A DNA stretch of 5,535 nt from a virus. The DNA lies in IMG/VR virus record IMGVR_UViG_3300007505_000002, one strand, 5' to 3'. Of this stretch, positions 465 through 5,535 are shown one piece after another (within the stretch, counting starts at the first letter, position 1; the number at the start of each line of letters is the position of its first letter). Both the position numbers and the translations under genes were made by a program. Below the pieces are notes generated by a model. The model was not told the DNA's origin. It saw only the letters and a program-made list of their open reading frames with translations, and searched no databases.

Positions 465-480
465 TACACAAATCTTCTAA

Positions 481-517
481 CAATAAAAATCAAACAATCC
501 GCGCCCGAAGGGCGGAG
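481..517 (-). terminator. Candidate intrinsic terminator oriented for minus-strand transcription, starting a few nt after the stop of the 521..664 antisense ORF.
   Basis: The minus strand reads ...CCGCCC TTC GGGCG(C)GG ATTGTTTGATTTTTATTG. The GC stem is CGCCC/GGGCG (+ coordinates 502..506 / 510..514), with possible extension across a bulge. A T-rich tail follows (reverse complement of 481..498). On the + strand the flank is A-rich upstream and not T-rich downstream, so the element is directional. Confidence 0.4.
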
Positions 518-520
518 CGG

Positions 521-664
521 CTACGGCACCGTGCCCATTTGTTCAATTAGTATTCTTAAATATTTAAGATACGCTGCTTTATATTCGACACTATGTTCGC
601 TCTCCAGACATTCAGCGATCTTTTCCAACTCTTGTATGTAGTAATCTAATTGCTCTTTTGTCAT
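521..664 (-). CDS. Hypothetical 47-aa acidic, helix-prone protein encoded antisense to all other genes: MTKEQLDYYIQELEKIAECLESEHSVEYKAAYLKYLRILIEQMGTVP.
   Basis: The ATG is the reverse complement of 662..664. AAGGA (reverse complement of 670..674) lies 5 nt upstream. The TAG stop is the reverse complement of 521..523 and is followed by the terminator-like hairpin. I recognise no family and found no convincing sigma70 promoter upstream on the minus strand. Confidence 0.4.
   Translation of the reverse strand: MTKEQLDYYIQELEKIAECLESEHSVEYKAAYLKYLRILIEQMGTVP
554..569. repeat. Perfect 16-bp AT-rich palindrome, TCTTAAATATTTAAGA.
   Basis: The sequence equals its own reverse complement. Imperfect extension gives GTAT(T)CTTAAAT / ATTTAAGATAC over 550..572. 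It lies inside the antisense ORF. Confidence 0.8.
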
Positions 665-672
665 ATTTTTCC

Positions 673-711
673 TTTTGTTAGGGTTTTGCAAGCAAGGGTC
701 CCCTAACAAAA
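673..711. repeat. Inverted repeat of 11 bp with a 17-nt spacer, either a hairpin or an operator-like site, between the antisense ORF start and the + strand promoter.
   Basis: TTTTGTTAGGG (673..683) is the exact reverse complement of CCCTAACAAAA (701..711). The left arm abuts/overlaps the SD region of the antisense ORF. The right arm runs into the A9 tract just upstream of the -35 element. Confidence 0.7.
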
Positions 712-716
712 AAAAA

Positions 717-746
717 TTGACAAACGTCATATCACTGTCATATTAC
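717..746 (+). promoter_or_regulatory. Sigma70-type promoter directed toward VP5, VP8 and VP4.
   Basis: The -35 is TTGACA (717..722), a perfect match. After a 16-nt spacer comes TGt-CATATT (736..744), an extended -10; alternatives are ATATTA or TATTAC at 17 or 18 nt spacing. An A9 tract (708..716) upstream could act as an UP element. The predicted start is around 751..753. Confidence 0.6.
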
Positions 747-870
747 ACACGAATGAAAAATGTAATGACAACGCCAGAATGGCTCGCTATGCATGAAAAA
801 GAAATCATTCGCAAATTTAAACAACGCGAAGCAACTAAACGCTATCGCCAAAAACAACAGGAGAAAAAAA

Positions 871-1182
871 ATGGAAAATCAAAACAGCCCAAGTGACCTC
901 GAGTTCTTCTCAGTTCACGATTCTAAGGTGAACGCTTATAAAGAACCGTTCCCTTGTCCTAATGCAGCGGTCTGTATCCGCGACTTTGAAACAGCTTTCA
1001 AGAAACCTAACGCTGACGAAGTCAACCAATTTTACATTAATTCCGAAGACTACAAAGTTTTCCGCGTCGGTCGTTACGACATGAAAAGCGGAACTTTGGT
1101 CGGCTGCTTGCCAGAACATATCGTGAATCTTCACGATATACGCACTGCGGTAGACCTCAAGAAAGGTCCAAGGGCATTGTAA
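871..1182 (+). CDS. VP5: Gokushovirus VP5-like non-structural protein, 103 aa.
   Basis: AGGAG (859..863) lies 7 nt before the ATG at 871. The translation FSVHDSKVNAYKEPF...A.RDF......YKVFRVGRYDMKSGTL follows the pattern I associate with gokushovirus and Chlamydia-phage ORF5/VP5 proteins (F.V.D.K...Y..PF...A.R.F...EDY.L..IG.YD..TG). An in-frame upstream ATG at 793 has no SD and is treated as the less likely start. Confidence 0.7.
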   Translation: MENQNSPSDLEFFSVHDSKVNAYKEPFPCPNAAVCIRDFETAFKKPNADEVNQFYINSEDYKVFRVGRYDMKSGTLVGCLPEHIVNLHDIRTAVDLKKGPRAL

Positions 1183-4047: not shown

Positions 4048-4622
4048 TGGGATTCGGTTGGGCCGAAGTCGCTGGAGGCGTCGGTTCCTTAATTGGAACC
4101 GTCGCTCAAGATCATTACAATCGTCGCGCTGCCAACCAGCAGCGTGACTGGGAATACAACATGTCCGGCTCCGCCCACCAGCGGGAAGTAAAGGATCTAA
4201 AGGCCGCTGGCCTCAATCCTATTCTCTCCGCTGGCGGCCAAGGAGCCTCGACACCACAAGGCGCAACAATGACTCCGCCTACCATCTCCATGCCTGGAGT
4301 AATGGAAGTCGCGAATCTCAAACTTGCACAACAAAAAAACCAACTCGATGGACAGAGAGTTCTTAATGAAACGCAAAATACTGCCAATAATACTGCCCTC
4401 ACTAATTCAACTATTGCGAAGAATCTTACGTCTTCCGAACTTGACAAAGTAAATACGCTCGCGACCAAAGGCGGTATCGGTACGAAATTTCTCGGCACAG
4501 ATGTTTTTAAAAAATTAGACCAGCCGGTCTTTAAAGAACAAAACATGCCGCGAAAAAAGTACAACCCGCTCAATCCGCCTGGAATGAATCAACCAAACAT
4601 CAGAATGGGAAGCCCTTATTAA
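4047..4622 (+). CDS. VP2: VP2 minor capsid / DNA pilot protein, 191 aa.
   Basis: The start overlaps the VP1 stop by 1 nt (TAATG). GAGG (4038..4041) lies 5 nt upstream. The protein has a Gly-rich hydrophobic N-terminus, and the motif SAHQREVKDLKAAGLNPILS matches the conserved ..YQR...D.K.AGLNP.L block of gokushovirus VP2. Confidence 0.85.
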   Translation: MGFGWAEVAGGVGSLIGTVAQDHYNRRAANQQRDWEYNMSGSAHQREVKDLKAAGLNPILSAGGQGASTPQGATMTPPTISMPGVMEVANLKLAQQKNQLDGQRVLNETQNTANNTALTNSTIAKNLTSSELDKVNTLATKGGIGTKFLGTDVFKKLDQPVFKEQNMPRKKYNPLNPPGMNQPNIRMGSPY

Positions 4623-5209
4623 TGAAAAAGCTAAATAAAACCCCGAACGTTCCACAAAATGAAAAATTGAACTTCGAAACTGGCGAGATGGAACAAATCC
4701 CTCTCGGCCAACTTAACGAGGTGATCGTGACCGAGGAGATACGTCCCAATGGCACCGTTCGCCGTAGGACCGATTACAAAAACTGCCCGACACTAGCGGA
4801 GCAGCACACAGCTCATCTAACAAACCTCAACTATCTAATCGAAAAATACCAACCCGATGAACTCGCTGCCTACCTTGCAGCCCGTGACCAATATAGACAA
4901 GAAATCATGGGACATGATTTCGCGTCAGAACCATCTTTGCAAGATGCAAAAAACCATGTTTACTACTCTAAACAAGCATATGCAGAACTCCCAGAAAAAG
5001 TCCGTAATCAATTCCGATCTCACTTAGACTTTATTAAATACGCGGATAATCCGCGAAATGCTCAACTCCTCGTCGATAACGGTATCGTTACGAGCGAGCA
5101 ACTTCAAAACATCCTTATTTCTGACCAACCACTGGTCATGACAGCTAAAATCCACCCTCCGGGTGAAACACCAAAAACTGATAATCAACAATCAGACACT
5201 AAATCCTAA
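4622..5209 (+). CDS. VP3: VP3 internal scaffolding protein, 195 aa.
   Basis: The start overlaps the VP2 stop by 1 nt (TAATG). The C-terminal block DF....SLQDA.N.V..S.QAYAELPEKVRNQF......FIKYADNP.N resembles Chlamydia-phage-type scaffold proteins. Its position after VP2 is canonical. Confidence 0.85.
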   Translation: MKKLNKTPNVPQNEKLNFETGEMEQIPLGQLNEVIVTEEIRPNGTVRRRTDYKNCPTLAEQHTAHLTNLNYLIEKYQPDELAAYLAARDQYRQEIMGHDFASEPSLQDAKNHVYYSKQAYAELPEKVRNQFRSHLDFIKYADNPRNAQLLVDNGIVTSEQLQNILISDQPLVMTAKIHPPGETPKTDNQQSDTKS

Positions 5210-5535
5210 TCACTCCGCGCGTGCGCGTGTCCCACGTGCGCGTGCGTCTCTTAGGCGCTTGTCGCCTCTTCTATTATCTATCTCTATTCCTTCAACCATG
5301 GTGAGAGTACACAATGCTCACCAAAATCCTCTATCCCCTGAGCTAATCAGGTCGCCGGGCCTATCGCTCATAGGCCGGCACGAATCCGAGCATGAGGGTG
5401 TTAGGGAGCGCGCAGCTGCTCCCTAACTACACAAATCTTCTAACAATAAAAATCAAACAATCCGCGCCCGAAGGGCGGAGCGGCTACGGCACCGTGCCCA
5501 TTTGTTCAATTAGTATTCTTAAATATTTAAGATAC
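4964..5535. repeat. Terminal redundancy, copy 2 of 1..572. Every element listed between 1 and 572 recurs here at +4963.
   Basis: Same comparison as for copy 1. The offset of 4963 is constant at the start, middle and end of the repeat. Confidence 0.95.

Follow-up and report, generated by a model that had tools for sequence, protein, structure and literature searches.

An antisense open reading frame in a variable spacer slot of a gokushovirus, a candidate protein-coding gene

The DNA analyzed here (the window) is a 5,535-nt stretch in which bases 1 to 572 are an exact copy of bases 4964 to 5535, indicating a circular genome of 4963 nt. All canonical gokushovirus genes lie on the plus strand: VP5 (Phage_ORF5), an arginine-rich VP8/J-type protein of 37 aa, the replication protein VP4, the capsid protein VP1 (Phage_F, E = 7e-119), VP2, and the scaffold protein VP3, which stops at 246. 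The 0.55-kb spacer that runs from the VP3 stop to VP5 holds, on the minus strand, a 47-codon open reading frame (ORF) at 521-664; given the 572-nt terminal redundancy, the 521-572 part of this ORF is present twice in the window. Megablast of the genome against GenBank phages found no close relative, and the nearest capsid proteins are 56 to 73% identical to its VP1. An exact-product look-up of the JGI gene call P0001 found no contig, and a scan of bacterial genomes revealed no close prophage.

The plus-strand genes that flank the spacer call for a few comments. VP5 is listed at 793-1182 (plus strand), and its start is probably ATG 871 rather than 793, since the Pfam match to Phage_ORF5 covers the long ORF only from residue 39 on and AGGAG precedes 871. 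A small basic ORF, MKNVMTTPEWLAMHEKEIIRKFKQREATKRYRQKQQEKKNGKSKQPK, lies at 753-896 (plus strand), just downstream of the plus-strand promoter described below and overlapping the VP5 start. In those examined relatives that have an ORF at this place, the homologue carries the pattern CxxC...KQREAxxRYRxK; these homologues are not annotated in the GenBank relatives and gave no significant PHROG match. At the VP3 end of the spacer, a direct repeat, CGTGCGCGTG, occurs twice at 257-281 in a GC-rich stretch (247-285), and a terminator-like hairpin with a T-rich tail follows VP3 at 290-314 on the plus strand, where it is convergent with the minus-strand terminator-like site.

The antisense ORF extends from an ATG at 664-662 to a TAG at 523-521. 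A Shine-Dalgarno (SD) sequence, AAGGA (670-674, minus strand), is positioned 5 nt upstream of the ATG, and a GC hairpin (499-520, minus strand) begins 1 nt past the stop codon and leads into a T-rich tail, ATTGTTTGATTTTTATTGTTA (478-498, minus strand), that is conserved in a related genome, L008. Together, hairpin and tail resemble a terminator in the minus orientation only. The first-pass annotation, made from the letters alone, had described this compact antisense unit, with AAGGA 5 nt before ATG 664, a 47-codon ORF for an acidic, helical peptide closed by the TAG at 521, and a terminator-like hairpin and tail on the minus strand only; every one of these elements is present, and the AAGGA reads as the reverse complement of 670-674. 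With -11.8 kcal/mol (z = -0.6), the hairpin is modest and no more stable than shuffled sequences, as compared with the strong terminator hairpins found after the corresponding ORFs of two relatives, L013 and L006. A perfect 16-bp palindrome, TCTTAAATATTTAAGA, lies within the ORF at 554-569; it could be due to chance in AT-rich DNA, or it could be bound by a protein or used in recombination.

The mechanical ORF list and JGI P0001 place the start at ATG 730, for a product of 69 aa. We favor ATG 664, since the 69-aa extension has no SD of its own, crosses a hairpin and a T-run, and corresponds to an upstream frame that is closed in L008. The 47-codon product, MTKEQLDYYIQELEKIAECLESEHSVEYKAAYLKYLRILIEQMGTVP, contains 9 D/E against 5 K/R and has a pI of 4.7 and a net charge of -4. 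AlphaFold2, run on the single sequence, models it as a two-helix hairpin (residues 3-23 and 26-43) with a mean pLDDT of 87, which agrees with the helical character predicted for it. A Foldseek search of this model against PDB returned nothing significant (best E = 4). That no homology had been recognized from the sequence also held up against databases: a word-index search of 5.8 billion proteins recovered nothing beyond the query, whether the 47-aa peptide was used by itself or as part of a profile that included possible relatives, and the only further matches from an exhaustive HMMER search, run on 1.84 billion cluster representatives, were two repetitive proteins. Neither the 47-aa nor the 69-aa product matched Pfam or PHROG, and no helix-turn-helix (HTH) or other DNA-binding family was recovered. 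Searching 50,697 phage records with tblastn gave no match to the 47-aa peptide, and Rfam covariance models applied to positions 200-900 gave only subthreshold chance hits.

The ORF was judged indirectly, by its own composition and signals. By chance, the minus strand of this genome's plus-noncoding DNA should contain approximately 0.04 ORFs of at least 40 codons with an SD and an ATG. When the ORF body was shuffled, the frame remained open for 46 codons past the ATG in 2.2% of trials (P = 0.022). The codon usage score of the ORF frame, +0.11, is the best of the six frames and falls within the range that the phage's own genes show in frame; this support is modest, as 6% of wrong-frame windows also reach +0.11.

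We then considered how such an ORF could be expressed. A consensus scan for sigma-70 promoters found none on the minus strand upstream of the antisense ORF, in line with the earlier reading, which could not find a convincing -35/-10 pair there. A weak candidate that falls under the scan threshold, with 8 of 12 matches, consists of ATGACA (741-736), a 17-nt spacer, and AATTTT (718-713) on the minus strand. The ATGACA-17-AATTTT arrangement is also present at the corresponding place in L008, L001, L013, and L006, where the sequences are homologous, so that the recurrence is not independent. This candidate (713-741) overlaps a strong promoter-like site on the plus strand (717-744; TTGACA, 16 nt, TGnCATATT; 10 of 12 matches with TG) that is directed to VP5, away from the ORF. 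Tandem repeats, GTCATATCAC / GTCATATTAC, lie 11 nt apart at 726-746 (plus strand) and overlap the -10 element of the plus promoter; 0.06 such occurrences are expected by chance. In the spacers of L029, L010, L005, L011, and L002, the promoter repeat takes the form of a palindrome, GTAATATTAC, containing TAATATTAC, which we take to be the origin nonanucleotide known from geminiviruses and other CRESS-DNA viruses. The repeats are found in relatives both with and without an antisense ORF in the spacer, and they could serve as a Rep origin or an operator.

Two prominent hairpins frame the unit. H2 (GTTAGGG-N17-CCCCTAAC, 677-708) lies between the SD and the plus promoter and is conserved in L008. 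In minus-sense RNA its stem lengthens to 16 bp (668-716) and sequesters the SD, with a folding energy of -17.8 kcal/mol (z = -3.2). H1 (GTTAGGGAGC/GCTCCCTAAC, 436-464) is found clade-wide, also in relatives that have no antisense ORF, and forms the border of the variable region on the VP3 side. Its sequence context (GGGTGTTAGGGAGC...GCTCCCTAAC, 430-464) is conserved in much of the clade (L001, L006, L019, L029, L010, L015, and L032), and its stem sequence is shared with H2. H1 is a candidate single-stranded DNA (ssDNA) signal, e.g., for complementary-strand synthesis. The idea that the region is always bordered by two copies of one hairpin, as a target duplication would be, was dropped, since L008 and L013 have no H1. 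A further GC-rich hairpin of about 10 bp, CCGGGCCTAT...ATAGGCCGG (388-415), was read by eye and was not listed by the repeat finder.

With the orphan peptide offering no alignment of its own, the spacers of related genomes provide the main evidence. Minus-strand ORFs of 44 to 61 codons with an SD, an ATG, and a GC hairpin occupy the VP3-VP5 spacer of L008, L001, L002, L005, L006, L011, L013 (GenBank PV067906, where the ORF is unannotated), and L019, and in each of these eight genomes AAGGA(G) stands 4 to 7 nt from the ATG. The hairpin after the ORF is followed by a minus-strand T-run in most of them; the L002 hairpin folds around the stop codon and has its T-run on the plus strand. Below, we refer to this position as the slot and to the ORF that it holds as the cargo. 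Automated gene callers at JGI and NCBI already predict the minus-strand ORFs of the slot.

To ask how far this exceeds chance, the minus strand of the plus-noncoding DNA of 85 genomes was scanned blind for ORFs that have an SD and an ATG and span at least 40 codons, with the expectation taken from dinucleotide shuffles. In the clade of 21 genomes, 10 such ORFs were found against 0.92 expected, for a Poisson probability of 5e-8 that overstates independence, since the genomes are related. The same type of scan, with the same limit of at least 40 codons, gave 5 ORFs against 5.4 expected in 64 more distant gokushoviruses. One of the clade matches, in L032, was rejected as a false positive lying antisense to VP1; the remaining 9, from 9 of the 21 genomes, are all within the VP3-VP5 spacer. 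Shuffling the bodies of these nine ORFs kept the frame open in 0.3 to 5% of trials for each. Purine content and AT skew of the plus strand are below the genome mean in 11 of 11 ORF segments, as would be expected if the minus strand were the sense strand. At least five sequence families can be distinguished among the cargos, and no similarity was detectable between them. Membership of the 47-aa peptide in one of these, family A (L001, L019, and L002), is not claimed, as the resemblance is weak and confined to the N terminus. An AlphaFold2 model of family B (pLDDT 60) was too poor for a fold search, and two sister peptides had no tblastn match among GenBank phages. When viral contigs were scanned for the conserved flank patterns, L008 was recovered and, beyond it, only chance matches in nonmicrovirus contigs. 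Units of the same makeup, with a minus-strand SD, ORF, and hairpin, were also seen upstream of VP5 or VP8 in the distant gokushoviruses L068, L076, and L036 (VP1 36 to 43% identical); the one in L068 (222-371, minus strand) has a textbook terminator.

The comparison with L008 delimits the variable part of the slot. The two genomes align closely from the plus promoter through H2 and the SD to the ATG, diverge completely in the ORF core (533-645, minus strand), where the cargos are unrelated, and align again at a 3' boundary (511-532; ACGGTGCCGTrrCCGCTCC on the minus strand) and in the T-rich tail. The boundary sequence is common to both genomes and is read in a different frame in L008. L001 and L006 likewise carry unrelated ORFs and share the last codons (KTGTKE) and the surrounding sequence. 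In L029 and L010, the cargo is absent and H1 adjoins the promoter repeats, as in an empty site. Flanks that are conserved around cargos that are unrelated, absent, or deleted among relatives show that the unit is dispensable and exchangeable. A remnant of the L001 type was observed at ~2090-2130 of L032, where a deletion has removed all of the ORF but its last codons (..TTTTGTTCCAGTTTTCTC), which, together with the terminator hairpin, lie directly against the promoter. On the scale of whole genomes, L006 and L102 show mosaic divergence (VP2, 14.8%; VP1, 6.3%; VP3, 0.7%; spacer, 0.5 to 1.7%), a sequence pattern that suggests recent recombination among cocirculating gokushoviruses.

Two cargo families, in genomes other than the 4963-nt one, are under purifying selection in the minus frame. 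The antisense ORFs of L006 and L111 are 75% identical in amino acid sequence; their differences are distributed 7/4/18 over the three codon positions, with a dN of 0.128 and a dS of 0.895 (dN/dS of 0.14), and the 12 replacements are conservative (mean BLOSUM62 score of +1.5). The co-phased plus frame mimics this dN/dS value, since the third positions of the two frames coincide; the replacements in the plus frame are radical (-1.27), however, and that frame lacks an ATG. Between L006 and L011, identity at codon positions 1, 2, and 3 is 0.61, 0.66, and 0.30, respectively, and 12 of 17 identical residues are encoded by different codons. Phages of the L006 type have been assembled from at least 10 samples, and each of the five sites that vary in their ORF is a third codon position. 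These assemblies were looked up by the exact protein, and the synonymous-only pattern therefore counts solely together with the finding that the 90% cluster of the product consists of one protein sequence. The second family comes from a more distant lineage, in which a 61-codon antisense ORF is 82% identical between L076 (2457-2642, minus strand) and L036 (3732-3914, minus strand). The differences are distributed 7/7/18 by codon position, dN is 0.117 and dS is 0.62 (dN/dS of 0.19), and every plus frame is closed. The first-pass annotation had proposed looking for ORF conservation and a synonymous bias in homologous spacers; both are evident in these sister families, and the 47-aa peptide of the window is an orphan.

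These results support a model in which the minus-strand unit of this genome occupies a recurrent slot. The earlier suggestion of a functional opposite-strand gene thus stands at the level of the slot, on the strength of the excess of such ORFs in relatives, the selection on two sister families, and the flanks shared with L008; translation of the orphan 47-codon ORF itself is plausible but unproven. Weighing these lines of evidence, we think it likely that the 47-codon ORF is a real protein-coding gene in a moron-like exchangeable accessory slot, antisense to all other genes of the gokushovirus.

It is conceivable that the ORF is untranslated, a chance or decaying frame in a spacer that acts as DNA by providing hairpins that serve complementary-strand synthesis, packaging, or the insulation of transcription. 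In favor of this reading, the peptide is an orphan, the scan found no minus promoter, and the spacer is rich in hairpins (H1, H2, and 388-415) that an ssDNA phage needs anyway; longer chance antisense ORFs exist elsewhere in the genome, e.g., at 4115-4573, and the cargo can be lost, as in L032. However, a frame of this kind would have to combine an SD-ATG pair placed as in eight relatives with an open reading frame, a conjunction expected 0.04 times per genome with P = 0.022 for the frame, and would have to do so with a codon usage that matches the phage's own genes and in a slot whose sister cargos are selected at the protein level. We consider this explanation unlikely. An RNA function accounts for some of the same features, if the minus-sense transcript interferes with the overlapping plus promoter, or serves as an antisense or primer RNA for the viral strand, and the ORF is incidental. 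Such a role would suit a candidate minus promoter that overlaps the plus promoter and a transcript with a structured 5' hairpin and a terminator, and an antisense RNA with no protein product has been reported in phiX174 (bioRxiv 10.1101/2020.03.05.979765). Yet it leaves unexplained the conserved strong SD at the correct spacing, the open frames of unrelated cargos, and the dN/dS of 0.14 to 0.19 and conservative replacements in the sister families, and the region matches no Rfam family; we regard it as improbable. Very improbable, in our judgment, is a divergently transcribed protein for immunity or regulation, comparable to rstR of CTXphi, with variable alleles controlling the adjacent main promoter: the ORF is indeed divergent to and next to the strongest plus promoter, its alleles vary between conserved flanks, and tandem GTCATATYAC repeats overlap the -10, but the peptide is acidic (pI 4.7) with no match to HTH or other DNA-binding families, the promoter and repeat region is conserved in L008 though the ORFs are unrelated, so that the putative operators do not covary with the cargo, the repeats are also present in cargo-free relatives, and no prophage relatives were found.

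If the 47-codon ORF is a gene of an exchangeable slot, its expression could be pictured as follows. The slot would extend from the clade-wide H1 to the promoter upstream of VP5 and would comprise, in the order of the minus strand, H2, a strong SD, the ATG, a cargo of 44 to 61 codons, and a hairpin with a T-rich tail. Antisense transcription would proceed from the double-stranded replicative form. A transcript starting near the T-run before H2 would have a 5' leader composed of H2 and the SD, and one starting farther upstream would have its SD hidden in the 16-bp stem. The minus transcript may end at the hairpin and T-tail, ahead of the region antisense to VP3, and the convergent terminators (499-520 on the minus strand and 290-314 on the plus strand) could keep each transcript out of the other unit. 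The cargo is probably exchanged by recombination inside the conserved flanks. Translation of the orphan ORF, the position of its promoter, and the mode of cargo exchange are what we infer from the arrangement of the locus.

As to function, variable small proteins between fixed flanks are, by analogy, typical of host interaction or antidefense loci. A tentative extension, which we regard as possible, is that some gokushoviruses maintain a hypervariable accessory slot, expressed antisense and bounded by hairpins, in which unrelated small proteins are swapped by recombination; such a slot would be an ambisense "arms-race" locus, perhaps for antidefense or superinfection functions. More doubtful is the proposal that the product in this particular genome would be a small, acidic protein of helical-hairpin form with a host or rival-phage protein as its binding partner, and the host takeover or antidefense role raised in the first-pass annotation stays speculative. 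If the slot is what it appears to be, the replicative form would be transcribed both ways, and even 5-kb phages would hold an exchangeable locus for small host interaction proteins. It would also follow that microvirus gene catalogues systematically miss a class of accessory genes, which surveys filtered by orientation would have erased.

The Microviridae serve as the textbook example of genomes that are read from a single strand. The first-pass annotation went as far as to state that all known genes of the family are transcribed from one strand, and this is close to right: one complementary-strand ORF, of 153 codons, was described in Human_gut_33_003 as "highly unusual," with no other case known (Roux et al. 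2012, PMC3394797). It is the sole earlier report of such an ORF in the family. Like the ORF described here, it is on the complementary strand and has no database similarity; unlike the slot, it is a single ORF in one genome, beside a peptidase gene, with no test of conservation or selection (PMC3394797). The first antisense RNA in the family was reported for phiX174 by Logel and Jaschke in 2020 (bioRxiv 10.1101/2020.03.05.979765), where it makes up <0.4% of reads and has no associated ORF or protein. It comes from a different subfamily and is evidence that a microvirus replicative form can be transcribed on the other strand. Large microvirus surveys drop reverse-strand genes by assumption (PMC9239249; for prophage regions, Zucker et al. 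2022, PMC9753089). A literature search for ambisense microviruses found no paper describing them, and orfN of phiMH2K, considered as a complementary-strand gene, proved to be placed on the plus strand in its record. Antisense coding as a principle is not new; a recurrent antisense slot in Microviridae is.

CRESS-DNA viruses commonly have antisense genes, and some regulators of filamentous phages are encoded in reverse orientation. The genome described here resembles those of geminiviruses and circoviruses in being circular ssDNA in which both strands have coding capacity, diverging from a hairpin-bearing intergenic region. In CRESS-DNA viruses, however, it is the core genes, Rep and Cap, that occupy opposite strands, and transcription has been shown to run in both directions, whereas in the gokushovirus a small accessory ORF alone is antisense and is known from sequence. 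In the filamentous phage CTXphi, rstR encodes a divergent, allelically variable DNA-binding repressor, and the operators covary with rstR. The likeness lies in an ssDNA phage with a small opposite-strand gene by the main promoter and with highly divergent alleles between conserved flanks; the difference lies in the product, an acidic 47-aa peptide with no DNA-binding signature, and in an adjacent promoter region that does not covary with the cargo.

The closest parallel in organization is offered by the morons of tailed double-stranded DNA phages, autonomous ORF units inserted between conserved genes. In the slot, as in morons, a small ORF that brings its own translation signals and terminator sits between conserved elements; close relatives have the cargo, another one, or none, and the strand composition of the unit departs from that of the flanks. 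Unlike morons, the slot belongs to a 5-kb ssDNA microvirus, its unit is antisense to every other gene, and its minus promoter is only a weak candidate. Finally, morons are inserted at scattered sites, whereas the cargo of the slot is swapped inside fixed flanks.
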